From contig JARKUF010000009.1 of the NCBI GenBank assembly GCA_029974015.1, positions 1,167 through 65,166 on the forward strand: 64,000 bases of DNA. Direction: 5' to 3'. Shown piece after piece: positions 1,121 through 47,968 of this stretch. Each line of letters opens with the position of its first letter. The first letter of the stretch is position 1. The notes under the pieces were generated by a model. The model did not search any database and was not told where the DNA came from. It worked only from the letters and a program-made list of their open reading frames with translations. The position numbers and the translations under genes were made by a program. Source of the stretch: Spirochaetota bacterium. GTDB taxonomy: Bacteria; Spirochaetota; UBA4802; JAGODF01.

Positions 1121-1239
1121 GGCAACCTCTTATATTTAGGCTTTCCCGCCCGCCGAAGGCGGGCGGGAAAGCCCAAGTCCTGAGTATGTCAGTAGTTTCA
1201 ATTCATGGGAACTCCAAAAATTTAATTTTTAAGGTTCCC
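1121..1239 (+). repeat. MITE-like intergenic repeat, copy 1 (full; GAAG-loop variant)
   Basis: ggcaacctct..-TTTCCCGCCCGCCGAAGGCGGGCGGGAAA-gcccaagtcctgagtatgtcagtagtttcaatt-GGGAACTCCAAAAATTTAATTTTTAAGGTTCCC. It is flanked by ATAT/ATAT. Confidence 0.85.
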
Positions 1240-1302
1240 ATATAGGATTCGCAAAATTTTTAAGGACCCTGTCAAGGAGCTTTTCCCCCGGCTGGAGGTT
1301 TC

Positions 1303-1659
1303 ATGACCGCGGAAGCGCTGCTGACAATTGTCGCTATGCCGGGAGGGGCTGCACTCCGGGGGGCAGCTTCCTGGATATTCAAGCACGATAGCGGCATCTT
1401 GAATATACATCACGTGACCGGTATTATACAGTGTCTTCACAGAATTTTTCCCACGTTGATCCGGTTACAGTCATGGTGCGATACTTTGAGGGTGCATACC
1501 TCATTGCAGGAAACTTATCATGCAATCAGCCGCCCGTGTGCTGCCGCCCCGGGGCAGTCCGGACAAACCATAAAAATAATTGCATTTTTCCCAGCGTTCA
1601 AATACTATTTCCCGATGAAACACGCGATATCCTCACCCCCAGGACGAGATTCAACCTGA
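1303..1659 (+). CDS. hypothetical protein (118 aa)
   Basis: Strong SD (ctGGAGGtttcATG). The stop overlaps the next start (TGATG). No recognisable domain; His/Cys-rich. Confidence 0.3.
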   Translation: MTAEALLTIVAMPGGAALRGAASWIFKHDSGILNIHHVTGIIQCLHRIFPTLIRLQSWCDTLRVHTSLQETYHAISRPCAAAPGQSGQTIKIIAFFPAFKYYFPMKHAISSPPGRDST

Positions 1660-1964
1660 TGAGCAAAAAATGGCTCGCTTATACCGGGATCTGTTTGATT
1701 CTTTTATCTTTTACCGCTTTTCTTATATCCGAGCCGCACCCTCAGGCGGCAAAGCTCCTTTTTTCCGGCTTGATGTGCCTCGGCTCCGGGCTGATACTTG
1801 CCTATACAGCCATCACCGGCAGGGTGCCGCTCCGCGTGTCGGGACCATGGCCCCATTTCGGCGAGCGTTTTTTTTCCGCGGCCTTCGGCCTCCTGATATA
1901 CCTGGCCCTTTTCGGAACCATGATATACTACTTTTTTATTGCCATAAGTGATTATATGAGATGA
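1659..1964 (+). CDS. small hypothetical membrane protein (101 aa, 3 predicted TM helices)
   Basis: MSKKWLAYTGICLILLSFTAFLI...; hydrophobic segments. Translationally coupled to the upstream ORF. The start is refined from the longer GTG-initiated ORF. Confidence 0.35.
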   Translation: MSKKWLAYTGICLILLSFTAFLISEPHPQAAKLLFSGLMCLGSGLILAYTAITGRVPLRVSGPWPHFGERFFSAAFGLLIYLALFGTMIYYFFIAISDYMR

Positions 1965-2033
1965 TCACGCTTCAGGTGCCAGCGCATTACCGGCTACCGG
2001 ATAAATATTGAATCGTTAAAAAAGAGGCCCCAC

Positions 2034-3131
2034 ATGATCAGCCATGGAACCAGGGACCTTCCTGTACTCCGGGAAAGCATCCTACCAGTACTTTTTACGC
2101 TCATGTTTGTTCTTCTCTCCACGTCCTGCAAGATCACGGAAGTCCCCCCGCAGAAGATCGACTCCGTGAGGGACGCGGTAAATTATCCTCACGCCGAATC
2201 GTTCACATTCACCGGAATAGCCGAAACGGAACACCTGGGAATATACACCTGGCGCAATCCCGCATACAAGAGGCCCTTCGGGTCGGACGGAAAGCCTGAT
2301 CCTTTCGCGATGTGGGTCGTACCTGTCGTAGACCGGCCGGTCCGCGGGTCCGGCGTCGTTTACATGTGGGCGACCCTTGTTGTGTCGGGAGCAAACAACA
2401 GGAACGACGATAAAATACTTGATGAATGGCTCGACACATTGCGCTCGTCCTTCAACGGTAAAGAGGTGAAAGCACGCGTAATGGTCCGCTCCGGCGACGA
2501 GAGGGGTTCGGGGTGGGAAAAGGCCATCAGGAATGCGGAGCTGAAACACGGACTGAAATCCCATCCCCTCGCCCCGGTTGTGGCCTGGCCGTCCACGAAA
2601 GCATCAGCTGATAAAAATCCAACCAGGGTTAGTATTCAAGAAACACAAAATATGTATATTATTCAAGTTGTTCCTCTGATTTTTTTAGCATTCCTCATTG
2701 CCTTCGCCCTCTTCTACCGCAGGGCTCTTCTCTCACGGCTCCCGCCCCGGCCCGGAGAATCAATCCTGAGCGAAGAGTACGGGGTAGCCGTTTATGAGCA
2801 TAGTGGTCCCCGCATAAAATGCTATAACAACTGCCGCGTACGCCTTACCGATTCGCGCATCATCATTGCCCAGAAGCTACCCCTTCTCCGCGACTCCTTC
2901 TATCTTCGATTTATTATACAATACAATGTGGATAAGGCCAGAACTGATCTCCTGACAATTTTAAAGAAGGGCTACTACGATATTGAGGTTCCAGCATCAC
3001 TGATTACCCTTACGGAAAAGGGCACGGAAATATCGGTGACTCTTCCTCTCTATCCTGTCTCAAGGCGCACCATTGAGTTCAAAATACGGCGCTCCGGAGA
3101 GTTCCTGCGCGTATTCCCGGTACGGCAATGA
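2034..3131 (+). CDS. hypothetical lipoprotein/membrane protein (365 aa)
   Basis: SD aagagg precedes the ATG. N-terminal lipobox-like LLSTSC. Internal TM (YIIQVVPLIFLAFLIAFALFY) after an AT-rich linker. No known domain recognised. Confidence 0.5.
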   Translation: MISHGTRDLPVLRESILPVLFTLMFVLLSTSCKITEVPPQKIDSVRDAVNYPHAESFTFTGIAETEHLGIYTWRNPAYKRPFGSDGKPDPFAMWVVPVVDRPVRGSGVVYMWATLVVSGANNRNDDKILDEWLDTLRSSFNGKEVKARVMVRSGDERGSGWEKAIRNAELKHGLKSHPLAPVVAWPSTKASADKNPTRVSIQETQNMYIIQVVPLIFLAFLIAFALFYRRALLSRLPPRPGESILSEEYGVAVYEHSGPRIKCYNNCRVRLTDSRIIIAQKLPLLRDSFYLRFIIQYNVDKARTDLLTILKKGYYDIEVPASLITLTEKGTEISVTLPLYPVSRRTIEFKIRRSGEFLRVFPVRQ

Positions 3132-3352
3132 ATGATCAAAATTTAAGGCCGGAATACCGGGCTTTCAGGGCTTTGTAAAAGCTTGTGTGATTACGAGGGA
3201 TTCTGATAAACGAAATTGTGTCGACTGGCCCCAATCTGAATGCGGAGCTTTTCTCAATCAATATCCCAAAAAACTTACTACAAGCCCAAGTCCGGGGCAC
3301 CAAAGATCGTAACAACCACCGGAAGTCTTTAACGCCGCTCAAGGGCTCCCGG

Positions 3353-3531
3353 CTATAATATCTTACCGGTATTCAGTATACCCTCGGGTCGAAGGTATTC
3401 TTTATGCGCTTCAGGAGCTCGACCTCCCTCCCTGACAGGACCGGCCCGAGGCGGCATTTTCGGATAAAACCTATGCCGTGTTTACCGGCAATCGTACCGC
3501 CGAGCGATACTTCGCGCCGGTATATTTTCAT
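3353..3531 (-). pseudogene. remnant of the C-terminus of an FAD-linked oxidase (GlcD / D-lactate dehydrogenase family); truncated and frameshifted
   Basis: Minus-strand translation gives ..SLGGTIAGKHGIGFIRK...ELLKRIKNTFDPR / GILNTGKIL*. This matches the GGTISGEHGIG....IK..FDP.GILNPGKI C-terminal signature. A 1-nt frameshift sits before GILNTGKIL, and no upstream coding continuation exists. Confidence 0.45.
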
Positions 3532-3699
3532 GCGGGTGGTAAAAATACCCGCATGAACGACACTTCGTTAAGCAACCGCAAAAAACTGTATTTTCATCTC
3601 CCGGTCGCAGGCGGTTCTCAATAACTATTGACAAACAGACCAGGCATCCTTATACTTTCGTGAACTGAAGCTTTCAGCTTCGTGCGCCTGTTTTCATTT

Positions 3700-3821
3700 A
3701 AGGCAACCTCTAATAATCAGGTTTTCCCGCCCGCCTTCGGCGGGCGGGAAACCTTAGTCCTGAGTATGCCAGTAGTTACAATTTAAGGGAACCTCAAAAA
3801 ATTTAATTTTTAGAGGTCCCC
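3700..3821 (+). repeat. MITE-like intergenic repeat, copy 2 (full; TTCG-loop variant)
   Basis: aaggcaacctctaataatcagg-GTTTTCCCGCCCGCCTTCGGCGGGCGGGAAACC-ttagtcctgagtatgccagtagttacaattt-AAGGGAACCTCAAAAAATTTAATTTTTAGAGGTCCCC. It is flanked by TTAA/TTAA. Confidence 0.9.
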
Positions 3822-3896
3822 TTAAATGACATGCGCGGGGGCTGAAGGAGTTATCAACATCATCGCCGACAGTATTAACGAGGAGGTTTTTTAATC

Positions 3897-4127
3897 ATGG
3901 CAGACACATGGCTTACGTCACTCATCACAGACACGCCGCAGGCTGGCTTTGAGCTTGCCATCACCATGAGCCGCCGCGCCGTTAAGTACACCCAGCCGGA
4001 CGCGGCAGTCAGAGAGAAGCTTCGCCCCGTGTATTCTAACGACGCGGATTCGCTTATCGCCGCGTCTCAGGTTGTGGCCATCAATTTTCAAACCGTCGCC
4101 GCGGCCAATAACTACTGGCGCAAGTAA
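3897..4127 (+). CDS. hypothetical small protein (76 aa)
   Basis: Strong SD GAGGAGG 7 nt before the ATG. Followed by a stem-loop. No recognisable domain. Confidence 0.4.
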   Translation: MADTWLTSLITDTPQAGFELAITMSRRAVKYTQPDAAVREKLRPVYSNDADSLIAASQVVAINFQTVAAANNYWRK

Positions 4128-4135
4128 GAAAAACC

Positions 4136-4178
4136 ATCCGGCGGAAAGCCACACATGATGCGGCCTTCCGCCGGATTT
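4136..4178 (+). terminator. putative intrinsic terminator after the 76-aa ORF
   Basis: 11-bp perfect stem atccggcggaa / ttccgccggat with a 19-nt loop, followed by a short T-run (weak U-tract). Confidence 0.35.
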
Positions 4179-4240
4179 CCAAAAGTCACCAAAACGTCAG
4201 TGTACAACACTCGGGAAACCCGCTTATAAAAGGGGAAATT

Positions 4241-4873
4241 CTATCGGACTACCAGCCGGTCTTTTTTCATTAAATTCCACTGTTCCTGATACTCCATGAT
4301 ATAGGCCACCTTATCCACAAAATCCTCATCATAACCAAATCGTTCCAACAGATAAAATCCCATTTCAAGGCCCGATGTAATCCCACCCGCAGTGATGATC
4401 CTGCCGGTATCGACGACCCTATGTCTGTCGATCTCGCATTTCGGAGCGATTTTAGCCAGTCGGTCAATGGGTACAATCGGTTCACCCGGATCAGCGTTCT
4501 TGCGATTGGTTGCCTTAAGACCATCCAGAAGACCCAGTATGCCATAAACCCACGAGCCTGTACATACACTGACCAGCAGCGTTTTATCCGGCAGGCCTTT
4601 GACAAAAGCGTGCAGACGGCCATTGTGCATTTCCGCCCTTGAACCGATGCCCCCGGGAATTAAAAAGGCGTCCATATCCGGACATTGATCAAGGCTGTAA
4701 CGGGGGTTCACACTCAGATTTCCGGTAGCCATAACCGGGGCAAGGGAATCACCCACCAAAAACACATCCAGTTCCGGATCCATCCGCCGGGCGACGGCAA
4801 ATACCCCTATGGGACCCGCCCAGTCAATGACTTCCGCATTATTGTATATATAGATCCCCAATCTTTTGGCCAT
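4241..4873 (-). CDS. DJ-1/PfpI (ThiJ, isonitrile-hydratase-like) family protein (211 aa)
   Basis: SVCTGSWVYG nucleophile elbow and DJ-1/PfpI fold motifs. The start is refined to MAKRLGIYIY with SD GGGAGGA. The long in-frame upstream extension runs through repeat DNA. Confidence 0.8.
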   Translation of the reverse strand: MAKRLGIYIYNNAEVIDWAGPIGVFAVARRMDPELDVFLVGDSLAPVMATGNLSVNPRYSLDQCPDMDAFLIPGGIGSRAEMHNGRLHAFVKGLPDKTLLVSVCTGSWVYGILGLLDGLKATNRKNADPGEPIVPIDRLAKIAPKCEIDRHRVVDTGRIITAGGITSGLEMGFYLLERFGYDEDFVDKVAYIMEYQEQWNLMKKDRLVVR

Positions 4874-5008
4874 ATTGATCCTCCCTGTACCTAAATTATT
4901 GAATTGAAATTGATACGCGCTTCCTTTGAAGCAGGCGGGAGTATAGTAACCCGACCTATGTGTGTCAAGTTTATTTTTGTCATAAGGTGTTGGGTGTGGG
5001 TGTGATGT

Positions 5009-5090
5009 CCTTTCCTGGAAGAAAGAAAGCATCCAGGACACAAAGCCCGCGGTGGCACGCCGCGCATGCCGCAAAGCAAATTCAACTTCC
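5009..5090 (+). repeat. direct repeat DR-L (~85 nt) flanking the MNT/HEPN cassette
   Basis: cctttcctggaagaaagaaagcatccaggACACAAAGCCCGCGGTGGCACGCCGCGCATGCCGCAAAGCAAATTCAACTTCC. It is ~90% identical to 6531–6610 in its 53-nt core. Confidence 0.8.
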
Positions 5091-5348
5091 TGTAAAACTC
5101 TCGTCAGCATAACCTGCTCCTTGCATCGCAATATTCCACCGCCTGGCCCATCGCGCAATACGTCTTTTCTAAGATGGGCCAGGTTACAGGCTAAAAGAAC
5201 CACATGCGTTAAATCGCCGCTTTGAAAGTTTTTCAGAGTTGACAAATGTAGAAAAATAAGGCTGTGTTTTTCCATAAGTAAAGGACACCCGCAAAAACTC
5301 ATATGAGGGATCAAAAACAATATTTTTAAGGTCTCAAAATTTGTTATT

Positions 5349-5408
5349 GCTGACATACTCAGGAATTACAATTTCCCGCCTGCCTTCGGCGGGCGGGAAA
5401 TCTGAATT
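5349..5408 (-). repeat. MITE-like repeat, partial internal fragment (copy 3)
   Basis: tgacatactcaggaattacaa-TTTCCCGCCTGCCTTCGGCGGGCGGGAAA holds the core plus the GC hairpin. Both termini and the AT hairpin are missing. Confidence 0.7.
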
Positions 5409-5519
5409 TTGTGACTGCCCTAAACATTAAGGTTTCGCGGTCAACGGATTTTGGCCAATGCTGGAACGGCAATGTCGCTTCAGGGTAAAATAATAAAATG
5501 AAGCTGATGGTAGCGTACA

Positions 5520-5846
5520 ATGTCGAACGATGAAATAATACTAAAAACCGTGGATGCCCTGACGGCAGCCCTGGGGCTGCGTCTGAGGCGCATCGTTCTG
5601 TACGGGTCCATGGCGCGAGGCGACGCAGTCGCCGGTTCGGATATCGACTGTTTGGCCGTAGTCGACCGTATCGACAGCACCCTGCTGGACGCGCTGGACG
5701 AGACCGCGGCCTCCATGCTACTTTCGCATGGAGTGGTGTGCTCCTTCGTACCGGTGGCCGAGAAACATTACCGCAACGGCGAACACAACCCGCTTCTGGT
5801 AAACATTGAGCGTGAGGGCAGAGTGTTGTGGCCGAAAACGGCTTAA
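5520..5846 (+). CDS. minimal nucleotidyltransferase (MNT/MntA-type antitoxin), 108 aa
   Basis: LYGSMARGDAVAGSDIDCLAVVD = GS..RG....SDID nucleotidyltransferase signature. Confidence 0.85.
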   Translation: MSNDEIILKTVDALTAALGLRLRRIVLYGSMARGDAVAGSDIDCLAVVDRIDSTLLDALDETAASMLLSHGVVCSFVPVAEKHYRNGEHNPLLVNIEREGRVLWPKTA

Positions 5847-6238
5847 AGGCCCAGATAGAGGCCATGATGGATAAGGCGGCACGTTCGATCGAGGCGGCGC
5901 GTGCCCTGCTGAAGGGCGGCAACTCCGATTTCTCATCGTCCCGCAGCTATTATGCCGTGTTCTACGCCATTCAGGCGCTCCTGCTCACTAAGGGGTTGGT
6001 CTATTCAAAGCACGCCGGGGTCATTTCGGGATTTAGTGAACAATTCATACGCCCCGGCGACTTCCCCAGAGTGTATGCCAAATACATAAGCCGCCTCTTT
6101 CGCGAGCGCCACGCGGGCGATTATGATTTCGCGCACGCCATAACTGAGGAGGACGCAGCTGAAGACTTGCGAATAGCCACCGAGATGGTGGCGTCTATTG
6201 AAGCGTACCTGAGCGAACGGCATCTATTGAAGAATTAA
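5828..6238 (+). CDS. HEPN-domain protein (HepT-type toxin), 136 aa
   Basis: Rx4-6H motif (RLFRERH) in an all-helical protein. Overlaps the MNT gene by 19 nt (GTG start). An alternative ATG at 5864 has SD agagg. Confidence 0.75.
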   Translation: MAENGLKAQIEAMMDKAARSIEAARALLKGGNSDFSSSRSYYAVFYAIQALLLTKGLVYSKHAGVISGFSEQFIRPGDFPRVYAKYISRLFRERHAGDYDFAHAITEEDAAEDLRIATEMVASIEAYLSERHLLKN

Positions 6239-6530
6239 ATACCGCAGTGCATATTGAGAATACGATAAGCTGAATAAAACGGCATTCATTTCAAAACAAG
6301 GAGCTCTAATCCTGAAAGCAAACGCGACTGCAAAAACCTCTGTGGCAAATCCCCCCGCAACTACGGACACGGATGTCCGGTAATCCCGGTGGGCACAGGA
6401 TGTGCCTTCACCGGGCTACAGCCCCTCGCGGACGCTGAGTAGGGCGCAGCCCGTATCGAAGCGCGGCGCCTGAGCTAATGCGCGGGAGGGGCGTGGGGAG
6501 GGGGTCGCGTACCTCCTCCCCACAAATGCC

Positions 6531-6610
6531 CGTTCCTGGCAGGATGAAAGTAGCCAAAACACAAGGCCCGCGATGGCACGCCGCGCCTGCCGCAAAGCAA
6601 ACTCAACTCC
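6531..6610 (+). repeat. direct repeat DR-R (~85 nt) flanking the MNT/HEPN cassette
   Basis: ccgttcctggcaggatgaaagtagccaaaACACAAGGCCCGCGATGGCACGCCGCGCCTGCCGCAAAGCAAACTCAACTCC. Confidence 0.8.
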
Positions 6611-6760
6611 AATAAAACCACAAGCGGCAGATTCACGCCAGAATCACTGACAGCTTCAGGCTTAATTTCCCCGGGAAAGAACTACATCGAAAAAAAACGG
6701 ATGTAGCGCTGCATTTTTCTCGATAATTAAGCAAGAGACCCCTCTATCCTGGAGAATGCC

Positions 6761-6979
6761 ATGGAACAAGTACAAAGAAGTTTCAATTTTACCGTAACAC
6801 CGGCAAATCGCCCGATAAATGATGCCGCTTCAGCGGAGTCATTGAAAACCGGAAACGAATCAATCATCCTTGAAAAGAGCGTATGCCGGCTCCTCGATGA
6901 TTATGTTCGCCGTTACACTGATGATGAATCCATCATCGAATTAAAGGGAAAGCTCATCAGGTATATCAGAAGCATATAA
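6761..6979 (+). CDS. hypothetical small protein (72 aa)
   Basis: SD ggaga 7 nt upstream of the ATG. No recognisable domain. Confidence 0.3.
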   Translation: MEQVQRSFNFTVTPANRPINDAASAESLKTGNESIILEKSVCRLLDDYVRRYTDDESIIELKGKLIRYIRSI

Positions 6980-7039
6980 TGCGCGTTGAAAACAGCAGCA
7001 AATGCCCGCGTCAACCGGACCATCTCCTTTGATTTTGCG

Positions 7040-7068
7040 TTGACAGGGCCGACGCTCCGGATTATCTT
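7040..7068 (+). promoter_or_regulatory. putative sigma70-type promoter for the phosphohexomutase gene
   Basis: TTGACA, 17-nt spacer, TATCTT. It lies ~90 nt upstream of the ATG at 7161. Confidence 0.4.
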
Positions 7069-7160
7069 CGCGGCAGGCTAATGCGCGGGAAAGTCAAAAT
7101 TCCCCTGACGCCGTATGCCGCGGCCATCTTCCGCGGAAAAACCAGAAACGGAGCGACAAT

Positions 7161-8912
7161 ATGGACCCAATCATTCAGAAGCGCGTGGAAGAATGGACGC
7201 GCCCTCCCTTCGACGAAAACACCATAGGTGAGATAAAGGCCCTTGCAGAGGGAAATAACGTAAAGGAGCTCACTGAGCGCTTCCACGCCACACTTGAATT
7301 CGGCACCGGGGGACTCAGGGGGATACTGGGCGCCGGGACCAATAGAATGAACATTTACACGGTGGGTATGGCGGCCCAGGGGCTTGCGAACTACATAATA
7401 CGCATGGGACGCCAGGACAGCGGCGTCGTCATTGCCTGCGACTCGCGTCGCATGTCGGACCTCTTCCGAGACGAGACCGCCTCCATCATGGCGGGAAACG
7501 GCATCAGGGCCTATGTCTTCGACGACATCACCCCGACGCCCCTTTGCTCATATGCCATACGAAAGCTTAATGCCGTCTCCGGCGTGGTTATCACGGCAAG
7601 CCACAATCCGCCTGAATACAATGGCTTTAAAGCGTATTGGGACGACGGCGGCCAGGTGGTGCCGCCCCATGATAAAGCCATCATCGGCGAGGTGAACGCC
7701 ATCGAGTCCATCGCGCACATAAAAAAGATGGATTTCGAAGAAGGTAAAAAACGCGGACTCATTACCATAATCGGAGATGATATACGCGGCGCCTATCTTG
7801 CCGAGCTCGAAAAAAAGGCCCTGAGAAAGCCCGGCAATTCCGGCATCAAAATAGTCTACTCCCCCCTGCACGGCACTGGGTATCGCATTGTTCCTGAAGT
7901 CCTCTCTCATTTCGGGTTCAAAAATGTTTTCCCGGTAAAGGAACAATCAATTCCGGACGGAAAATTCCCCACTGTGAAATATCCGAACCCCGAAGAGCGG
8001 GCGGCCCTGGAAATGTCCCTGACCCTTGCCCGTGAGACGGGCGCCGACATCATCCTCGCCACGGACCCCGACGCCGACCGAATGGGCGTGGGCTTCCGAG
8101 ACGAAAAAGGCGACTACATCCTCATCAACGGCAACCAGATCGGCACGATGCTGGAGTACTATCTCCTGAAACGCCTCTCCGAAGAAAACCGTCTCCCGGA
8201 AGACGCCGCCGTCATCAAGACAATAGTCACGACGGACCTCCAGGAGGAAATAGCGAAGTCTTTCGGATGCAGGACCGAAAACGTGCTTACGGGCTTCAAA
8301 TGGATTGCCATGAAAATGAAGGAATACGAAGAGAATGGGGGCGGCTCTTTTGTTTTCGGCGGCGAGGAAAGCTACGGATACCTTCCCGTGGACTTCGTGC
8401 GGGACAAGGACGCCGTTAGCGCCTGCTACTTTTTCGCCGAGATGACCGACTGGCTCCAGAGTAAAGGTTTAACGCTGAACGACTTTTTGAATGAAATATA
8501 TCTGAAGCACCACCTCTACCTTGAGGACCTCCACTCCCTCACCCTCAAGGGCCTTGAGGGAATGGAAAAGATAGGCGCCATCATGGACTCCTTTCGCGCA
8601 GCCCCCCCGAAGGAATTCGCGGGAACACCGGTGACCTGCGTCTCCGATATCAAGTCCCTGACAATGAAAGACCTTAAATCGGGCGGAGAGTTCCCAATGG
8701 AAGGCCTGCCGAAATCGGACGTACTCCAGTTTTTCCTTGAGGACGGCGCAAAGATAACCATGCGCCCATCGGGCACGGAACCGAAAATCAAGTTCTATTT
8801 CAGCGTAAAGGAGAAGGTGGACGCCTCCGGCATCGCAGAGGGCAAGCAATCGTTGAAAAAAAAGATCGAAATGTACAGGGCGTCCCTTCTGGAGAAGGTC
8901 CAGGGGCTGTAA
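7161..8912 (+). CDS. pgm: alpha-D-phosphohexomutase (phosphoglucomutase/phosphomannomutase), 583 aa
   Basis: Active-site TASHNPPEYNGFK (phosphoserine loop); GEESYG sugar-binding loop. Confidence 0.9.
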   Translation: MDPIIQKRVEEWTRPPFDENTIGEIKALAEGNNVKELTERFHATLEFGTGGLRGILGAGTNRMNIYTVGMAAQGLANYIIRMGRQDSGVVIACDSRRMSDLFRDETASIMAGNGIRAYVFDDITPTPLCSYAIRKLNAVSGVVITASHNPPEYNGFKAYWDDGGQVVPPHDKAIIGEVNAIESIAHIKKMDFEEGKKRGLITIIGDDIRGAYLAELEKKALRKPGNSGIKIVYSPLHGTGYRIVPEVLSHFGFKNVFPVKEQSIPDGKFPTVKYPNPEERAALEMSLTLARETGADIILATDPDADRMGVGFRDEKGDYILINGNQIGTMLEYYLLKRLSEENRLPEDAAVIKTIVTTDLQEEIAKSFGCRTENVLTGFKWIAMKMKEYEENGGGSFVFGGEESYGYLPVDFVRDKDAVSACYFFAEMTDWLQSKGLTLNDFLNEIYLKHHLYLEDLHSLTLKGLEGMEKIGAIMDSFRAAPPKEFAGTPVTCVSDIKSLTMKDLKSGGEFPMEGLPKSDVLQFFLEDGAKITMRPSGTEPKIKFYFSVKEKVDASGIAEGKQSLKKKIEMYRASLLEKVQGL

Positions 8913-8939
8913 AATCGTCAAATTTTCGGCGAGGGAATA

Positions 8940-11661: not shown

Positions 11662-11670
11662 GGTCCCCTT

Positions 11671-14419: not shown

Positions 14420-14587
14420 GTTCCTTAACCCCTTCTGATATTTCTCATTGAGAACCAATCCCGGCCGGAGGAAAATACTACAGGAAACGTCAGTACGGCG
14501 GTGAAAATTCCGCGCCAGTATCCCGGCCTTCGCCGGTCAGGCACTCAGGTTTTTCCGGAAAGAGTATTTGTCAAGCCGATTTTGCGG

Positions 14588-15997: not shown

Positions 15998-16180
15998 ATA
16001 GATGTACCTTCCAGGTTTTTATAGGGAAGCTTAAAAAAAATTTTAAGGCTCCCATAAATAGCGTTCCGGAGAATTTTTTTCACCCAACAGGTGTCGGGCA
16101 CCCGATGGCGGAAATTGGATAAGCATGGTTATATTATCGAAAAAGTCAAGAGTATAATCAAATGGGAATTACAAAAATTT

Positions 16181-26946: not shown

Positions 26947-27068
26947 AGGCAACTTCTAATGCTTATGTTTCTCCGCCCTCCAAGGGGGGGCGGAAAAAAC
27001 TAAGCCTCGAGTTTTTCATTAGCTTCAATCCATGGAAACTTAAAAAAATTAATTTTTTAAAGGTTCCC
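26947..27068 (+). repeat. MITE-like repeat, diverged copy 4, 12 nt downstream of tRNA-Pro
   Basis: aggcaacttctaat..-TTTCTCCGCCCTCCAAGGGGGGGCGGAAAAAA-...-GGAAACTTAAAAAAATTAATTTTTTAAAGGTTCCC. Same module order, with a degenerate GC hairpin. Confidence 0.7.
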
Positions 27069-34235: not shown

Positions 34236-34264
34236 TCCCGGAAGGAGACCGCCGCTGCCGCGAA

Positions 34265-34349
34265 GGATACGGCATGACATAAGGACTCCCCGACATTCAA
34301 TGACACGAGGGCCGGCATGTTTGTCACCGACGCCGTATCCTGTTTTTTT
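34265..34349 (+). terminator. putative intrinsic terminator after the 3-hydroxyacyl-CoA dehydrogenase gene
   Basis: 9-bp stem ggatacggc/gccgtatcc enclosing a structured loop, followed by T7. Confidence 0.4.
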
Positions 34350-34380
34350 CTTGCAAAATACCATCTCTGCAGTAACATCC

Positions 34381-34500
34381 GGGAACCTCTAAAAATCAAT
34401 TTTTCGAGGTTTCCATAAATTGTAACTGCTGGCATACTCAGGACTTCGGTTTTCCCGCCCGCCGAAGGCGGGCGGGAAAACCTGATTATTAGAGGTTGCC
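34381..34500 (-). repeat. MITE-like repeat, copy 5 (full, reverse orientation)
   Basis: GGGAACCTCTAAAAATCAATTTTTCGAGGTTTCC-ataaattgtaactgctggcatactcaggact-TCGGTTTTCCCGCCCGCCGAAGGCGGGCGGGAAAACC-tgattattagaggttgcc. Confidence 0.9.
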
Positions 34501-34553
34501 ATACATCAAAAGCACCGCCATCCATCCGTGCGGCGGGGAAAGGAGATCCCGTC

Positions 34554-37465: not shown

Positions 37466-37671
37466 GGAAAAATCGCGCCTGTCGGTATAGTTTCTGTACA
37501 TCCAAGGGTATAATTAGGCAAGGATTTTTTGGAAGATATCTTTGAATATATGGTCCCAGAAAGGCGCGATACCGCCGGGAAGCGAGCTGTCAGCCAACGC
37601 GCCCCCGGCACAGCGCCTCCGACGCAAAAAGAACTTGATCTCCGGCGTTCGCTTTTGTATCATGCTGCATC

Positions 37672-38241: not shown

Positions 38242-38253
38242 ACCCCTTCCTTA

Positions 38254-38862: not shown

Positions 38863-38877
38863 ACTCTTAAATTATAT

Positions 38878-38965
38878 GGCAATCTAAAAATGTTTGGTTT
38901 CCCGCACGCCCTCGGCGGGCATGAAAACATGGTTTTTGCGACAACCCTTTAGGTTGATTTTTCCA
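38878..38965 (+). repeat. MITE-like repeat, degenerate copy between mobA and mobB
   Basis: ggcaatctaaaaatgtttgg-TTTCCCGCACGCCCTCGGCGGGCATGAAAAC-... The left terminus and GC hairpin are recognisable. The remainder has decayed. Confidence 0.5.
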
Positions 38966-38977
38966 GAGTATCAAAAC

Positions 38978-41888: not shown

Positions 41889-41983
41889 CCAGCACTCCCT
41901 CTTCTACTTTTGAGCATCTCTTCGGGCCGGGCAGTGTCAAGTGTAAATTCTTCTTGGCTTTTTACGTCGCGCTTTCTTGATAT

Positions 41984-43051
41984 CTACTCCTCCCAGTCCC
42001 AGAAAAAATCTTTGTTTGTGAGCTCCTTCTCCGGCTCCCTCGTTTCTTCTCCGGGAAGTCTTGTTGAAAAAACGCTTCCGCTACCGTGGATTAATTCGAG
42101 CTGGTCCTCCAGGTCCGCCGTCTGCTCCTCCCAGTACTGGACAGAGCCGAAATGGGGAAATGCCGCGGGGAAAGCCGGGTCGTCCCATCGTGCGGCTATC
42201 CAGGAGGCGTACCTGATATACCGGAGCGACCTAAGGGGCTCCACGAGGCGAAGCCATGAATCATCAAAATCCCGAAAAACCCGATAGGCGTCAAGCATCA
42301 GGGTACGCTGGCGCAAACCCTCTTCATCACAGGCCGGAGCGAGCATCCAGAGGTCCTGGACAGCCGGCCCGGTAAGAAAATCATCGAAGTCAAGAAAAAA
42401 ATACCCCTCCCTGCCATGGAGGAGGTTTCCCAGGTGACAATCCCCGTGGATGCGGTGAACAGGGACGTTCCCGGCCAAGGCGTCGTATATCTCCACGATC
42501 TCCCTCACCGCTGCGGCATACCGGTCCCGACAATGGGAGGGCAGTAAATTTCTTTCAAGCAGAAACTCCAGGGGCCGAAGTCCGTACGTCTCCCCCGTGA
42601 GGGCGATACGGTGACGCGCCGGCTTCGCGGCGCCATTGTTATGGATGCGGGCGAGAAGGCGTCCGAGAGACTGCAGTTGAGCGTCGGAAAGCTCGTCGGG
42701 AACTCTGCCTCCTGTGCGCGGCCAAATGGCGTAGTAAATCCCCTTTGTTTCATGGAGCGTTTCGCCATCGGAAAATTGCACAGGAGCGCATACGGGAATT
42801 TCATCGTCCTTTAAATCAAAGAGAAATTCGTGCTCCTCTAAAATCTGCTCCCGAGACCAACGTCCCGGCCTGTAAAATTTCCCAATTACATGGGAGCCAT
42901 CCTCAAGACGCAAGTCGTAAACCCGGTTTTCGTAACTGTTTAGGGCCATGCAATGGCCCGTGGGCTCGTACCCGCTTTCTTCGACCGCTTTCAGGATGAT
43001 ATCCGGCGTAAGCTGGAAAAAAAAGTTACTCATTTCACAAAAGCTCTTCAA
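41984..43051 (-). CDS. RdoA/SrkA (YihE)-like Ser/Thr protein kinase / phosphotransferase-fold protein
   Basis: Kinase-like catalytic motifs (HRIHGDCHLGNLL and LDFDD). Confidence 0.7.
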   Translation of the reverse strand: MKSFCEMSNFFFQLTPDIILKAVEESGYEPTGHCMALNSYENRVYDLRLEDGSHVIGKFYRPGRWSREQILEEHEFLFDLKDDEIPVCAPVQFSDGETLHETKGIYYAIWPRTGGRVPDELSDAQLQSLGRLLARIHNNGAAKPARHRIALTGETYGLRPLEFLLERNLLPSHCRDRYAAAVREIVEIYDALAGNVPVHRIHGDCHLGNLLHGREGYFFLDFDDFLTGPAVQDLWMLAPACDEEGLRQRTLMLDAYRVFRDFDDSWLRLVEPLRSLRYIRYASWIAARWDDPAFPAAFPHFGSVQYWEEQTADLEDQLELIHGSGSVFSTRLPGEETREPEKELTNKDFFWDWEE

Positions 43052-43109
43052 ACGCCGAAGGCGAGGCAGAATGCCTCGCCTTCACGCTAATCATTTTAAA
43101 CAAGATTAT

Positions 43110-44159
43110 TTACGACTCCTGGCGGGGGCTTCTCTTCTTCCACCAGAGAAAGTAACCGGCAGCACAGCCTCCTCCAAGAACCAGCAATATAAGGGGAATA
43201 ATCCAGAACAAAGCGTTCGGAGATTCGTCAAGATTACGGTAATGCAACTGCTCCGTCGCGGCGGCATTTTCATCGAGGTCCTTCGCGTCGACAGCGCCAG
43301 CCGCTTTGAGGAGCTTGAAAATTTCGGGACGGCTGTGGTTGATGGAGTATTTCACGATGGAATTGCCGAACTTGTCCTTTGCGTTCACATCGGCCTTCGC
43401 TTCGATTAGGGCCTTGGCGATCTCAGTATTGCCGCTGATCGTGGCCGCCATAAGAGGCGTCACGTAGGCCATAACGAGCTCATAATCTTTATCGTTGGTC
43501 TTGGCGTTTACATTGGCGCCTGCAGCGATGAGGGCCTTGGCTACATCGGTATGTCCTTTTTTCGCCGCTAAGATGAGGGGCGTTTCGCCGAAATCGTTGC
43601 TGATGTTAACATTCGCTCCCTTGGCCGAGAGAAGGCGCACCACATCGGCGTATCCCTTTTCAGCGGCCACCATAAGAGGCGTGGCCCCCCTGCCGCTGGG
43701 CTGGTTGACCCTGGCGCCTCTGTCGATAAGGTCATGGACGATATCTACATTACCGGTCTTTGTGGCGAGGTAGAGGGGCGTCACTCCTTCCTTGTTCGAC
43801 TGGTTGACGTTGGCGCCCTTCGCCGTCAGGAGGCGCACCACCTGAAGGTCCTGATTTTTAACCGCAAGGGAGAGGGCGGTTATGCCATATGTTTTATCGG
43901 TGGAGTTGACGTCGGCGCCCTTCGAAATGAGCAGTTCTACAATCTCCGCCAGCCCCCTGTGGGCCGCGAGGATAATCATCGTCGCATCATAATTGTCGGG
44001 ATCCCGGTGGTTCACACTGGCCCCTTCCTTCAGAGCTTCACTGACGCCCCTGAAGCTCCCTGCACGCACGGCGCGAAGCAGATCATCATTGGGCGACGCA
44101 AACGCGGAAATTGAAGCCAGTACTACAAACGCAATCATCATAGCTATAGTCTTTTTCAA
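43110..44159 (-). CDS. ankyrin-repeat protein with signal peptide and C-terminal TM anchor
   Basis: At least 6 ANK repeats (TALSLAVKNQDLQVVRLLTAKGANVN ...). Signal peptide LKKTIAMMIAFVVLASISAFA with a TTG start and SD GGAGG. C-terminal TM FWIIPLILLVLGGG. An alternative ATG start at 44180 lacks an SD. Confidence 0.7.
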   Translation of the reverse strand: MKKTIAMMIAFVVLASISAFASPNDDLLRAVRAGSFRGVSEALKEGASVNHRDPDNYDATMIILAAHRGLAEIVELLISKGADVNSTDKTYGITALSLAVKNQDLQVVRLLTAKGANVNQSNKEGVTPLYLATKTGNVDIVHDLIDRGARVNQPSGRGATPLMVAAEKGYADVVRLLSAKGANVNISNDFGETPLILAAKKGHTDVAKALIAAGANVNAKTNDKDYELVMAYVTPLMAATISGNTEIAKALIEAKADVNAKDKFGNSIVKYSINHSRPEIFKLLKAAGAVDAKDLDENAAATEQLHYRNLDESPNALFWIIPLILLVLGGGCAAGYFLWWKKRSPRQES

Positions 44160-44191
44160 AACAGTGCCTCCGGCATACAAAAAGAGATTAT

Positions 44192-44324
44192 GGGGAACCT
44201 CAAAAAATTATTTTTTTGAGGTTCCCATCGACTGTAACAACAGGTATAACTACTGGCATACTAAGGGCTTGGGTTTTCCCGCCCGCCGAAGGCGGGCGGG
44301 AAAACCCAAGTATTAGAGATTGCC
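44192..44324 (-). repeat. MITE-like repeat, copy 6 (full, reverse orientation)
   Basis: GGGGAACCTCAAAAAATTATTTTTTTGAGGTTCCC-atcgactgtaacaacaggtataactactggcatactaagggcttgg-GTTTTCCCGCCCGCCGAAGGCGGGCGGGAAAAC-ccaagtattagagattgcc. It is flanked by TATG/TATG. Confidence 0.9.
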
Positions 44325-44471
44325 TATGGTGTAATACCCGATTGGGGTTACATATCAGTCATCAGAGGGGATCGCCTGTATAATAAGGCTGATATGTCCG
44401 TTGGAAGTGCACATTAAATAAGATTATTATTTTGTCAATAAAATTACCTTGTCCGAGACAAACCCGATCGG

Positions 44472-45350
44472 TTAAATATCGAAGGTCTGCTTTTCCATGG
44501 CGGCATGCAGCTCCAGGGGGAAACCGCGGTCCTGTATCATCTGCCGATAGTGCAGAAGTATGTCATCAAGATCATCGTCGCTGCGCAGAGGTTCGTGGTG
44601 GAAAAAAAACAGCTTCTTCACCCCGGCACGAACCGCCATGTTGACCACATGGTGGGTGGTGCTGTGGCCCCATCCCCGCTTTGACTCATATTCCGATGGA
44701 AGATACTGTGAATCCGTGACCAGGGCATCGGCTCCCTTCACGAACTCCACAAGGCGCCGATTCAAATTCTCGACAAACTCTCCCATCTCGCCGTCTCCGT
44801 CTTTGTAGACATTATAATACGGCTCGTTGTCCCCCAGGTAGATGAAGGTTTTTCCGCCATAATGGACCTTGTAGCCGAGGCACGCCACGGGATGGTTTAG
44901 AGTGATCGATTCAATTGTAAAGTTTCCTATAGTGAAGCTGTCCTGCTCAATCTGGTGATAGCTGATTTCCGCCTGAAGCTCCACGGTGCGCACAGGGAAG
45001 TAGCTGTACTTCATCTGGCCGCTCAGGATGTCCTCCAGGGACATCTCCACGGTGCCGGGCCCGTAGATCGCGACACGGTTCCCCGGGATGTAGATGGGGG
45101 TAAAAAAAGGGATCCCGTTGATATGGTCCCAGTGTGGATGGGAGATGAGGATTGTGATATCATGCTTCTTTGAAAGATCGAGGGATTCGCCGAGGACCCG
45201 CAATCCCGTTCCCGCGTCGAAAATGATCCAGTCCCCATCCTCCGATCGGATCTCAAGACAGGAGGTGTTCCCTCCGTACCGCATGGTAGATGGGCCGGGT
45301 ACAGGAATGGAACCGCGTACTCCCCAAAATGTGACTTTCAGCCATCCCAT
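44472..45350 (-). CDS. MBL-fold metallo-hydrolase
   Basis: HxHxDH motif ISHPHWDH. Confidence 0.75.
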   Translation of the reverse strand: MGWLKVTFWGVRGSIPVPGPSTMRYGGNTSCLEIRSEDGDWIIFDAGTGLRVLGESLDLSKKHDITILISHPHWDHINGIPFFTPIYIPGNRVAIYGPGTVEMSLEDILSGQMKYSYFPVRTVELQAEISYHQIEQDSFTIGNFTIESITLNHPVACLGYKVHYGGKTFIYLGDNEPYYNVYKDGDGEMGEFVENLNRRLVEFVKGADALVTDSQYLPSEYESKRGWGHSTTHHVVNMAVRAGVKKLFFFHHEPLRSDDDLDDILLHYRQMIQDRGFPLELHAAMEKQTFDI

Positions 45351-46198
45351 TATTTAAGAAAAAGCCTCGCCTTTTCAATTTCCTTGTTAATATCGGCCAG
45401 GGCCTCAAAGACCGCCTCTTCATTGAGGCCCAAAACCTTCCAGATTTCCTCAACGATGGGAGATATTCGATAATTTCCGCTGAAACCGACCTTTAAAATT
45501 TTCACAAAATTGTCGGCAATGCCCACCACCATGGAGAATATGGCCGACTGACCGGTGAGAACAGGCAGATGATGCCTTCCCACGGCATAGAGAAGATTGT
45601 TTTCAAATTTCCATTTTTTCCCGATGGCGATGCCAATCTCCTCATGGGAGAGTCCCAGGATGTTTTTTTCAATATCGGTGATGAGCGCGTTCTTCCGGGA
45701 GGATATCTCCAACACCTTCTTCATCTCTTCGGGAAAAAAATTATTTATGAGGATTTTTCCAATATCGTGAATAAGACCGGCGATAAAATATTCTTCAATA
45801 AATTTGTCCTCTACGCCGAGCCGCTTGGCAATCATCTTCGATGCGACCGCAACACCGAGGGAATGTTTCCAGAAGTCTTCGCCATCCAGGACGGTGCTAC
45901 CTTTCAGGTAGGACCTCCCGAGGAACGCCGATGAAATCGCGACGTTCTTGATGGTGTTGACGCCGAGCATCACTACGGCCTGCTTGAGTGACTTCACCTC
46001 CTGGGGCAGGCCAAAGTATGCCGAGTTGACCATGCGTATGACTTTCGCCGTAAGGACGGGGTCAAACTGGATGACGTCCGTAAGGTCCTGTGCGGAAGAA
46101 CGTACGTTATTCGCCACCTCGTTAATCTTGTGGATCACCGGCGAGAGGCTCGGCATCTTGTCAATAGACTCCTTGACCCTGTCAACCACGCTTTTCAT
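45350..46198 (-). CDS. HDOD-domain signalling protein
   Basis: HDOD-like helical domain (AGLIHDIGKILINNFF). Confidence 0.75.
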   Translation of the reverse strand: MKSVVDRVKESIDKMPSLSPVIHKINEVANNVRSSAQDLTDVIQFDPVLTAKVIRMVNSAYFGLPQEVKSLKQAVVMLGVNTIKNVAISSAFLGRSYLKGSTVLDGEDFWKHSLGVAVASKMIAKRLGVEDKFIEEYFIAGLIHDIGKILINNFFPEEMKKVLEISSRKNALITDIEKNILGLSHEEIGIAIGKKWKFENNLLYAVGRHHLPVLTGQSAIFSMVVGIADNFVKILKVGFSGNYRISPIVEEIWKVLGLNEEAVFEALADINKEIEKARLFLK

Positions 46199-46392
46199 TC
46201 AATTATAACGGTCCGAAAGAATCGATAAGGCTTTTATCGTTTATAATATGAATTTCCATGCTTCAAATTCAGTAGTTCAGCCAATACAGCACATCAAGAA
46301 CAATAAGCGCCCAGAAGAGGACGATGTAGGAAATTATCAGCCCGAGGAATACCATGCGGAGTCGTTTCAAGACCATGCGCTTCATTCCGGCA

Positions 46393-46758
46393 TCATTCAC
46401 GCTTGAGGACAATTTTACCCCGCATCACCCTGAAGGGCATTATTGTTTCATTCCGTTTTATCGACAGGAAAACCGCGGTCCCCGCTTTGCCGCGAAGCAA
46501 GTTTGTGACAATATGATCGTGCTTAAGTCCCTTGAGGTTTTTTCCGTCCACCGACTCAATGATATCGCCCGGTTTTAAACCCGCATCATGTCCAGTGCCC
46601 CCCTGGTAGACGGAGACGATGATATAAGGCCGTTCATCGGTAACAATTTCGTTCCCCGACGGGACTTCAATGCCGAGCCCGCCGAATTCTTCACCGGAAC
46701 ATCCGAAAATATACATTGCAAACATCATCACGGGGACAAATATTGCGAAAGGTCTCAT
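46393..46758 (-). CDS. small PDZ-domain lipoprotein
   Basis: Signal/lipobox MRPFAIFVPVMMFAMYIFGCSG, then a PDZ fold (GLKPGDIIESVDGKNL). Confidence 0.6.
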   Translation of the reverse strand: MRPFAIFVPVMMFAMYIFGCSGEEFGGLGIEVPSGNEIVTDERPYIIVSVYQGGTGHDAGLKPGDIIESVDGKNLKGLKHDHIVTNLLRGKAGTAVFLSIKRNETIMPFRVMRGKIVLKRE

Positions 46759-46811
46759 TGTTGACACCACCCTTGCCTGCGAAGCCAAATCGGTACAGAA
46801 TTTTGATTTTT

Positions 46812-46894
46812 GGCAGCCTCTAATTGCATGGTTTTCCCGCCCGCCGAAGGCAGACAGAAAAACCCAGGTGCCGAGTCTGTCAGTAATTACAATT
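46812..46894 (+). repeat. MITE-like repeat, partial copy 7 (left TIR, half-degenerate GC hairpin, core; no AT hairpin)
   Basis: ggcagcctctaattgcatgg-TTTTCCCGCCCGCCGAAGGCAGACAGAAAAA-cccaggtgccgagtctgtcagtaattacaatt. Confidence 0.75.
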
Positions 46895-46944
46895 ATTGTT
46901 CAAAACTGGGCCAATATGTCAAATATTTTCCATGATGATCAGAT

Positions 46945-46976
46945 AAAAAGGGCGCCCCGAGAGACGCCCTTTTTAT
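46945..46976. terminator. bidirectional intrinsic terminator (downstream of the minus-strand OMP gene)
   Basis: AAAAA-gggcg-ccccgagaga-cgccc-TTTTT: GC stem flanked by A5/T5. Confidence 0.5.
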
Positions 46977-47001
46977 GTTATGAGAATATTGTGCAATCGT
47001 C

Positions 47002-47538
47002 TTAAAATTTATACTGGAGGCCAAGAAGAATCGCAAAGATGTTTTCATCCCTATCCGCTATATCAATAAAGCGATATCTGGCTTCAAGTATCAGTTCAAA
47101 GGGCGTTCCGGAAATACCGAATTGGGCCCCCGCAAAAAGATCGACACCGGCGTCAGAATCCTTATCTCTGCTGTATTTATTATTATAATCTTTATAATTC
47201 AGCGAAGGACCGAACCCAAGGAAGGGCGATATGGAGGAATTACCCATGAAGTACCAGTACCAATCAAAATGAATTCCCCAAATATCATAGAGGGAAGCAT
47301 TGCTTGTTTCAATGGATACCCAATCAAGCCCCGGTTTAAATTTTAAACTGTTGAAAATAAAAGTGCCCATGTCGAAGAAAACGCCAAAAGTCCAGGTGTT
47401 TTCCGCGTCAATATCCTCCAGGTCGTTCTGCATCATCGCATAGCCGCCCTTAATAATGATGGCCCTGGCGGACAGTTCTCCGGCCGCGAAAGAGAGCATC
47501 AAACCCGCCGCAATCAGAAACACCAACAGTTTTTTCAT
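47002..47538 (-). CDS. outer-membrane beta-barrel protein (OmpA-like TM domain / porin family), 178 aa
   Basis: Signal peptide MKKLLVFLIAAGLMLSFAAGELSA. Alternating amphipathic beta-strands. C-terminal aromatic ...GLQYKF. Low-GC codon usage relative to its neighbours. Confidence 0.65.
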   Translation of the reverse strand: MKKLLVFLIAAGLMLSFAAGELSARAIIIKGGYAMMQNDLEDIDAENTWTFGVFFDMGTFIFNSLKFKPGLDWVSIETSNASLYDIWGIHFDWYWYFMGNSSISPFLGFGPSLNYKDYNNKYSRDKDSDAGVDLFAGAQFGISGTPFELILEARYRFIDIADRDENIFAILLGLQYKF

Positions 47539-47624
47539 TACAATTCCTCCTCGTTATCTGAATATCTTTCCATAAATGAAACCAGCCGTATGTATTTGTC
47601 AACCACAAGACCAATTTATAATTT

Positions 47625-47706
47625 AAGGCAACCTCAAATTATTAGGTTTTTCCGCCTTCCGAAGGGGGACAGAAATATCTAAGTCCTGAGTCTGCCAGCA
47701 GTTACA
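47625..47706 (+). repeat. MITE-like repeat, diverged partial copy 8
   Basis: aaggcaacctcaaattattagg-TTTTTCCGCCTTCCGAAGGGGGACAGAAA-tatctaagtcctgagtctgccagcagttacag. Confidence 0.65.
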
Positions 47707-47814
47707 GATCATCCGAATTATAAAGAGCCAAACTTTAAAAGAACCCTTAACTCAAAAAAATTTTAAACTTCAGTCCGATTTTACGTATTAATTACGTGAC
47801 AGAATGCATAATTG

Positions 47815-47849
47815 CAAGGGGAAACCCAAGTCCTGTGTTTGTCAGTAGT
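47815..47849 (+). repeat. MITE-like repeat fragment (core only), directly abutting copy 9
   Basis: aagggGAAACCCAAGTCCTGTGTTTGTCAGTAGT is the 3' half of the GC hairpin plus the core. It is truncated where the next copy begins. Confidence 0.6.
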
Positions 47850-47968
47850 GGCAACCTCTAATAATTAGATTTACCCTCCCGCCTTCGGCGGGCGGGTAAA
47901 TCTAAGTCCTGAGTATGCCAGTATTAACAAATCATGCGAATCTCAAAAATTAATTTTTAGAGGTCCCC
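47850..47968 (+). repeat. MITE-like repeat, copy 9 (full; TTCG-loop variant)
   Basis: ggcaacctctaataattaga-TTTACCCTCCCGCCTTCGGCGGGCGGGTAAATC-taagtcctgagtatgccagtattaacaaatcatgcgaatc-TCAAAAATTAATTTTTAGAGGTCCCC. Confidence 0.9.

Follow-up and report, generated by a model that had tools for sequence, protein, structure and literature searches.

The 64,000-nucleotide stretch of Spirochaetota DNA analysed here (part of contig JARKUF010000009.1, hereafter the window) carries a dispersed family of small intergenic repeats, and these are very probably MITEs (short for miniature inverted-repeat transposable elements), i.e. small non-autonomous elements that are moved by a transposase acting in trans. 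The existence of the repeat family is confirmed, and, an identified parent element excepted, the features by which MITEs are recognized are present: small size, a non-coding sequence, terminal inverted repeats, flanking duplications, an empty site in relatives and dispersed intergenic copies. The initial annotation of the window had proposed a MITE-like, non-autonomous nature on the basis of the termini and the 4-bp AT-rich duplications, and each check that gave a result supports that proposal. The kind of element is itself ordinary and well known, and no new mechanism is involved; the particular family is apparently undescribed, as it has no match in Rfam or in a limited literature search. 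The window (53.6% G+C) is contained in the 143,715-bp contig JAPXOM010000008.1 of the Spirochaetota metagenome-assembled genome (MAG) GCA_033811455.1, homologues of its proteins come from sources labelled Spirochaetes or Spirochaetota, and the setting of the organisms concerned, all uncultured, is the anaerobic digester.

A repeat finder run on the window returned a family of 120 nt whose members match one another many times, both directly and inverted, and a profile built from five full copies recovered every one of the ten copies (E-values between 7e-50 and 8e-8) and the single fragment (E = 1e-4) that had been reported, with nothing else of substance in the 64 kb. The claimed terminal inverted repeats proved equally real: the 16-nt terminal motif GGSRACCTCTAAWAAT has 14 matches in the window at up to two mismatches, where 0.31 are expected, and all 14 lie within copies. 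The tally comes to ten copies, one fragment and one solo 30-bp palindrome, with units of 70-138 bp whose interior has no open reading frame (ORF) and no coding capacity. Both orientations occur and all copies are intergenic, as had been stated, when judged against genes with Pfam support; the overlaps with the ORFs at 430-1176 and 4241-5356 are only apparent, because the longest possible start codon was taken there. Two copies had been underestimated. What was described as a partial copy at 5349-5408 is in reality a complete 138-bp element with other termini and its own TTTA duplication, and the supposedly partial copy at 47625-47706 is of full length and has TTAA on both sides. With the A and B types (distinguished by their outer termini, see below), the inventory reads as follows:

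1121-1239, plus strand: A-type full copy of 119 bp in a divergent intergenic region; ATAT at 1117-1120 and 1240-1243
3702-3821, plus strand: A-type full copy of 120 bp; TTAA at 3698-3701 and 3822-3825
5283-5420, minus strand: B-type chimera of 138 bp, with the same architecture as L001:2026-2167; TTTA at 5279-5282 and 5421-5424
16024-16053, no strand: solo 30-bp palindrome (GGGAAGCTTAAAAAAAATTTTAAGGCTCCC), hairpin 2-like, recognized from a weak profile match and its sequence, and missed by the initial annotation
26948-27068, plus strand: degenerate A-type copy of full length that shares about 70-77% identity with the other copies, without flanking duplication
34381-34500, minus strand: A-type full copy in the upstream region of the gene for fructose-1,6-bisphosphatase (FBPase); flanks ATCC and ATAC (given for the plus strand), alike at three of four positions
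38878-38947, plus strand: short 70-nt form whose left terminus is of the A type, whose right terminus is B-like (GTTTTTGCGACAACCC) and whose GC hairpin is degenerate
44193-44324, minus strand: A-type full copy of 132 bp with a 12-nt internal insertion; TATG at 44189-44192 and 44325-44328
46812-46898, plus strand: 3'-truncated A-type copy without hairpin 2 and right terminus
47627-47746, plus strand: degenerate A-type copy of full length that shares about 61-72% identity with the other copies; TTAA at 47623-47626 and 47747-47750
47818-47849, plus strand: fragment of an older copy, i.e. the right arm of the GC hairpin and the core up to CAGTAGT, abutting the next copy
47850-47968, plus strand: A-type full copy abutting fragment 47818-47849; flanks TAGT and TAAG, unmatched

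The aligned copies show that the A-type element of about 120 bp consists, in this order, of a left terminus, a GC palindrome, a core and an AT-rich palindrome. The left terminus is 16 nt long (GGCAACCTCTAATAAT), the right terminus reads GGGRACCTCTAAAAAT as reverse complement, and the element is thus bounded by GGCAACCTCTAATAAT and ATTTTTAGAGGTYCCC. The GC palindrome (TTTCCCGCCCGCC-TTC-GGCGGGCGGGAAA) forms a stem of 13 perfect base pairs, as had been noted before, although the loop is one of 3 nt (TTC or GAA) and not the tetraloop that was given along with it; by way of the flanking runs of T and A the stem reaches 17-20 bp. With T before and A after the hairpin on either strand, its surroundings are the opposite of those of an intrinsic terminator. 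One part of the conserved core (AGTCCTGAGTATGCCAGTAGTTACAA) is a degenerate inverted copy of the terminus, and since the core stretch GAGTATGCC is complementary to the left terminus (GGCA..CTC), the left 70 nt constitute a long imperfect palindrome in themselves. The AT-rich palindrome, or hairpin 2, spans 34 nt (GGGAACCTCAAAAAATTTAATTTTTAGAGGTCCC), and its outer arm is the right terminus. The element is best seen as two palindromic units with a joining spacer. The predicted folds are far more stable than those of shuffled controls (z = -7.3 and -8.9; the first value belongs to the copy at 3702-3821, with a predicted RNA fold of -55.7 kcal/mol), and seven of the 26 predicted pairs retain their pairing through changes on both sides. 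As the loop reads TTC in some copies and the complementary GAA in others, in both genomes that carry the family (the window and loci L001-L038), the centre of the palindrome appears to flip, which hints at hairpin or cruciform formation at the level of the DNA.

Evidence for transposition comes first from the flanks. Among 15 full-length copies of which both ends are defined (eight from the window and seven from the distant MAG ADurb.BinA120, introduced below), ten have an identical AT-rich 4-mer directly outside both ends (ATAT, TTAA, TTTA, CATA, TTAA, ATAA, TCAA, TAAT, ATAA and TATT), whereas 100,000 permutations of the right flanks produced 1.0 perfect matches on average and at most 6. The three duplications that had been listed at the outset (ATAT, TTAA and CATA/TATG) are correct, and two further, nested B-type copies have TTAA on either side.

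Relatives of the host in which the sites could be compared were reached via homologues of the FBPase and the HDOD protein. The exact comparison concerns the 132-bp element at 44193-44324, which in the window is embedded as GATTATG, element, TATGGTGTAATACCC (with longer flanks ...GCCTCCGGCATACAAAAAGAGATTATG and TATGGTGTAATACCCGATTGGGG on its left and right). The site is uninterrupted in L014, where GATAAG is directly followed by GTTTGGTACCC (longer context ...GCCTCCGGAAAATATAGATAAGGTTTGGTACCCGGTCGAGG), and likewise in L045/L046, where GATTTAAG is directly followed by GTTTGATACCC (longer context ...GCCTCCGGTATATGATTTAAGGTTTGATACCCGATCGAGG). Two related genomes thus hold a single 4-mer (TAAG) where the element sits in the window, with conserved flanks on either side, and removal of the element together with one TATG restores colinearity. 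Five more copies fall within the region compared (34381, 38878, 46812, 47627 and 47850), and none of them has a counterpart in the matching intergenic gaps of the relatives. For instance, the copy at 34381-34500 splits a conserved FBPase upstream region that is uninterrupted in L012, L014, L017 and L018, the gap between mobA and mobB measures 121 bp in the window versus 59 bp in L014 and 20 bp in L045, and the TPR-OMP gap, which holds two copies in the window, measures 972 bp versus 117 bp in L048. In the OMP-PDZ gap, the copy at 46812-46898 follows directly upon a TTGACA that the relatives have in common. A profile search of 166 kb from four related genomes, the FBPase of which is 81-86% and the HDOD protein 88-91% identical to that of the window, yielded no copy even at E = 10. 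The TPR-OMP gap collects insertions in several lineages, since in one of these copy-free relatives it holds different small repeats (GTCATTCCGGC...GGAATGACAG; L045 8241-8701).

Copies do exist outside the window. A strict internal pattern was scanned against one genome for each of 185,579 species, and the only real copies came from five contigs of 'Spirochaetes bacterium ADurb.BinA120' (MVZN01); the other four loci were chance matches. The ADurb.BinA120 loci contain at least 15 distinct copies, arranged in clusters that are head-to-head, tail-to-tail or in tandem. In the JGI metagenomes the strict pattern identified 17 real loci. The majority match contigs of ADurb.BinA120 at 98-100% identity, and the remaining ones are new and without match to the window. 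The same type of scan found no copies in viral contigs. Of the genome and metagenome matches, those at L002, L004, L006, L008, L031, L034, L035, L039 and L040 were set aside as due to chance. The family thus extends to another Spirochaetota MAG and to metagenomes from digesters. Within the ADurb.BinA120 population, the contigs L020 and L005 also differ by a tandem duplication of about 120 bp (L005 4419-4540), some 600 bp from a pair of copies.

The distribution does not follow relatedness. Locus L032, which belongs to the ADurb.BinA120 population (98.8% identical to L007), carries a MutS2 gene whose product is 49% identical to that of the window, whereas the copy-free L014 and L045 reach 67-68%. 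At the same time, identity between a copy of the window and one of ADurb.BinA120 reaches 92%, as high as in the best pair inside the window, and both genomes contain old, degenerate copies. Because copies are up to 92% identical despite a MutS2 identity of 49%, the patchy pattern is best explained by horizontal spread among co-resident digester spirochaetes, although strong sequence constraint could contribute to the likeness between the genomes. The family would then mark cleanly that distant, uncultured Spirochaetota living in the same anaerobic digesters have exchanged DNA in recent times.

Variation within the family extends to the termini themselves. The B type consists of the GC hairpin, core and hairpin 2 of the A type within different outer termini (GGGCAGTCACAAAAACT ... 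AGTTTTTGTGACCGCCC in general). For the element at 5283-5420 these are GGGCAGTCAC... and ...GCGGGTGTCC, and the ends of the minus-strand element read GGGCAGTCACAAAA... and ...TTTTGCGGGTGTCC. Further B-type elements are found in L001, L005 and L038, and in L036 the B termini enclose an unrelated interior. Short forms of 70-86 nt comprise a terminus, the GC hairpin and a terminus, and in L001 (6225-6501) 86-nt units of terminus, hairpin and inverted terminus form a tandem array. The shortest members are solo terminus-terminus palindromes of 30-36 bp (window 16024-16053 and L048 2650-2684), the one in the window looking like two terminal repeats placed back to back without an interior. Nesting is also observed: at three loci (L001, L005 and L038) hairpin 2 of an A copy is interrupted at its AT-rich centre by a B copy that has its own duplication, and the copy at 47850-47968 in the window abuts the fragment of an older one. 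The subfamilies probably arose through recombination of modules, and the family illustrates how MITE subfamilies come about by swaps of termini and by insertion into one another's hairpins. A different insertion, of about 95 bp and unrelated sequence, lies inside hairpin 2 of an A-type copy in L007 (1138-1348; also in L028, L030 and L032) and holds a GC-rich hairpin of its own (CCCACGCCTGCGGCGGG).

By what route could such elements have spread? We propose as the most likely mechanism that a transposase of the DDE type, the usual kind among the cut-and-paste enzymes of insertion sequences (IS), would bind both 16-nt termini in trans and would make cuts staggered by 4 bp at an AT-rich target, after which repair of the gaps would duplicate the 4-mer. 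A preference for AT-rich targets would steer copies to promoters and leaders directly upstream of genes, and as the AT-rich centre of hairpin 2 in resident copies would be a further target, the same preference would give rise to nested and clustered copies. The sequences themselves show the repeats with their termini and duplications, one exact empty site, the lack of copies in close relatives, the nesting and the occurrence in a distant lineage; the type of transposase, any present activity of the elements, horizontal transfer behind the patchy distribution and any effect on neighbouring genes are what we infer here. The statement that the window holds no transposase gene was upheld by scans for protein families. 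No solo or widely spaced pair of termini bounding an ORF was seen in the window and some 30 related loci, and two scans of viral contigs did not reveal a parent element.

Two candidates for a mobilizing enzyme were considered and rejected. The 365-aa ORF between the first two copies of the window resembles a membrane or lipoprotein-type protein in sequence rather than a transposase, and has no match in Pfam or NCBIfam. The other, the single transposase noticed close to copies, is part of a 1.2-kb insertion in a single metagenome contig (L029 4880-6114) that is not present in the ADurb.BinA120 MAG (L003 around 812). By its N-terminus (MRKSIGIDVSK...), its ORF (4906-5877, minus strand, 323 aa) resembles an IS110-family transposase. 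The insertion point coincides with the end of a different small inverted-repeat element (TGTCATCGCGA ... TCGCAATGACA; L003 around 806-935), about 139 bp from a copy, and this enzyme is unlikely to be the mobilizer; moreover, the IS110 family is not expected to give termini or duplications like those described here.

The family has its closest parallels among other small mobile repeats. Like the Correia/NEMIS elements of Neisseria (100-155 bp, non-coding, with terminal inverted repeats and without a transposase of their own), it is present in many intergenic copies, often near gene starts, that can form long hairpins when transcribed. The initial annotation had stated that the sequence does not resemble Correia, and this is borne out: the 26-bp Correia terminal repeat, TATAGTGGATTAACAAAAATCAGGAC, has no match in the window at up to three mismatches, and Correia elements duplicate TA whereas a variable AT-rich 4-mer is duplicated here. 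The host phylum differs as well, and so does the interior, with its perfect GC hairpin and second palindrome. MITEs derived from IS families with 4-bp duplications, such as the IS5 group, likewise have termini that start with GG, a 4-bp duplication and an AT-rich target including TTAA. GG at the start of the termini, together with duplications of 4 bp, would point to the IS5 family, the target of IS5 itself being YTAR; since most of the 4-mers found here do not fit YTAR, the connection serves as a lead only, and the window, the 30 or so related loci and the viral contigs yielded no IS whose ends match. In more general terms, a survey of 183,232 genomes describes MITEs as elements of 50-800 bp with termini of at least 10-15 bp and duplications of 2-10 bp, about 90% of which are intergenic (PMC11602168). 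The present family fits that working definition, its hosts being uncultured Spirochaetota MAGs from digesters, and a MITE family is to be expected in this phylum because the cultured genera Leptospira, Treponema and Sediminispirochaeta are reported to be MITE-rich (PMC11602168). Comparison with Rfam did not connect the copies to any known family: at gathering thresholds only the tRNA-Pro of the window passes, and a permissive scan of the copy at 3702-3821 gave matches far below threshold only, mostly to eukaryotic microRNA models.

The position of the copies relative to genes is relevant to how their spread should be viewed. Four sites (five copies) lie in divergent and five copies in tandem intergenic regions. 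Four of the five tandem copies are closer to the start of the downstream gene (34-76 nt) than to the end of the upstream one, and relative to the downstream gene three are oriented with it and two against it. The copy at 3702-3821 stands between a promoter-like site (3628-3656), which is upstream of it, and the HTHP gene (3897-4127), which it precedes by 76 nt, and the one at 26948-27068 starts 13 nt past tRNA-Pro(GGG). Copy 34381-34500, antisense to FBPase and 54 nt ahead of its start codon, separates the leader from a conserved motif (TTTTTTTCTTGCAAAA); 38878-38947 lies between the divergent mobA and mobB; 44193-44324 lies 34 nt upstream of a gene for a 349-aa protein; 46812-46898, the copy that directly follows the promoter-like TTGACA, is upstream of and antisense to the PDZ gene; and 47850-47968 lies 14 nt upstream of ORF 47982-48440. 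Such placement agrees with preferential insertion into AT-rich promoter DNA, and less with an RNA role that is tied to one strand. Since copies are seated in the promoters or leaders of FBPase, mobB, the PDZ-HDOD operon and the haem protein gene, they may alter the expression of their neighbours.

Several observations weigh against the MITE reading. Five of the 15 full-length copies are without a perfect duplication (one agrees at three of the four positions, three at two and one at none); the exact empty-site comparison pertains to one copy, the relatives being too diverged elsewhere for alignment at the level of bases; and as the window, some 30 related loci and the viral contigs did not reveal an autonomous element with these termini, the transposase is hypothetical. 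In addition, compensatory changes at seven pairs preserve the pairing of the GC stem, and the interior is unusually conserved and common to elements with different termini, which together hint at constraint beyond selfish transposition. The reading that takes most account of the latter holds that the interior (the 17-20-bp GC hairpin and the 27-nt core) is a functional cassette, carried within at least two sets of termini and passed horizontally between distant digester Spirochaetota, that would rewire the mRNA stability or translation of its neighbours because the copies land in leaders 14-80 nt before start codons. It could draw on the interior being about 90% identical between organisms with a MutS2 identity of 49%, on the compensatory pairing and on the recurrence of the module in A-type, B-type and hybrid elements; the same evidence would also fit a selfish element that was transferred recently and needs its interior for binding by the transposase, and we consider the cassette rather unlikely. 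The compensatory pairs, the between-organism identity of the interior and the strongly folded structures might also suggest structured RNA modules (cis-regulatory leaders or small RNAs) that are maintained by selection on the RNA and only secondarily dispersed, all the more as a start codon is found 14-80 nt downstream of most copies and one copy is situated between a promoter-like site and its gene. The tandem copies, however, are oriented three with and two against the gene, the pair table contains 12 G-U versus seven C-A/A-C cells (a hand count), which indicates no clear selection on one strand, there is no match in Rfam, and the neighbouring genes are functionally unrelated. A consensus scan of the three copies within positions 1-6000 found neither a promoter-like site nor a terminator on the sense strand, the sole terminator-like call being the GC hairpin of 5283-5420 on the antisense strand, and an element that bears a promoter or terminator was thereby set aside. 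Because the orthologous leaders of close relatives do not have the elements, these are not part of the conserved regulation of the genes; for that reason, and in view of the mixed orientation, a leader or riboswitch oriented with the downstream gene was dropped, and the RNA reading as a whole is improbable.

A relationship to the REP/BIME/REPIN repeats, in which single-stranded hairpins are spread by a RAYT tyrosine transposase of the IS200/IS605 kind, deserves mention because of the strong palindromes and the long hairpins they are predicted to form, the GTAG within the core (CAGTAGTTAC), the TTC and GAA loops that suggest extrusion of the palindrome at the DNA level, and clusters in ADurb.BinA120 that are arranged as REP arrays are, i.e. 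head-to-head, tail-to-tail and in tandem, with a patchy presence between species (PMC3733652). However, REPs measure 20-40 bp, with GTAG or CGTC immediately adjoining their stem on one side (PMC3733652), while the unit of 120 bp is three times too long, its stem is flanked by TTT and AAA instead of either tag and GTAG occurs about 25 nt downstream, in the core. The terminal inverted repeats are equally foreign to REPs, which moreover lie mostly downstream of genes where the copies described here lie mostly upstream. No RAYT is present in the window or in its annotated counterparts L010, L041 and L043, and none was noticed in the other loci, which were not scanned for it. Enzymes of the IS200/IS605 type are not expected to make target duplications of the kind seen here, i.e. 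a variable 4-mer at ten of 15 copies together with a precise insertion that comes with its duplication, and a REP/REPIN origin must be judged highly improbable. It is barely credible, finally, that the copies are dispersed operators, in which the 13-bp GC inverted repeat would bind a dimeric regulator or nucleoid protein and define a regulon. The palindrome is indeed perfectly symmetric and strongly conserved and the positions are promoter-proximal, but what recurs is the entire 120-bp unit, including its termini and the duplications that flank it, relatives lack such sites at the corresponding promoters, and the neighbours (FBPase, mobB, PDZ, haem protein and hypothetical proteins) have no theme in common.

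Some of the surroundings of the copies are of interest in their own right. The motif TTTTTTTCTTGCAAAA (window 34340-34356) is kept upstream of FBPase in five genomes (the window, L012, L014, L017 and L018) and is, going by this conservation, probably part of the FBPase promoter or operator. In the latter four a block of 6.5-9 kb with 8-9 genes (DUF2752 ... MoxR-type AAA, DUF58, SpoIIM) is located between the genes for 3-hydroxyacyl-CoA dehydrogenase and FBPase, which the window (34236-34340) does not have. That the copy at 34381-34500 marks the junction of a 6.5-kb deletion was considered and rejected: because the conserved FBPase motif is found on the far side of the copy, the latter represents a plain insertion, and the deletion is to be placed farther upstream. 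The product of ORF 47982-48440 (152 aa) matches no family, and homologues that are 35-49% identical adjoin gcpE in the relatives (e.g. L012 13001-13426); the window has nothing at the position beside gcpE, and the ORF appears to be a relocated gene or else a paralogue. The B-type copy at 5283-5420 adjoins a nucleotidyltransferase-HEPN gene pair (5520-6238), a putative toxin-antitoxin module, and the first 7 kb of the window resemble accessory DNA. A second, unrelated direct repeat of 83 nt without a match in Rfam occurs there at 5005-5087 and 6526-6608 (84% identical, both intergenic). Repeats such as these break short-read assemblies: Logan contigs stop inside the copies at 34381-34500 and 44193-44324, and two Logan contigs of the same strain stop at 6543, inside the second copy of the 83-nt repeat.

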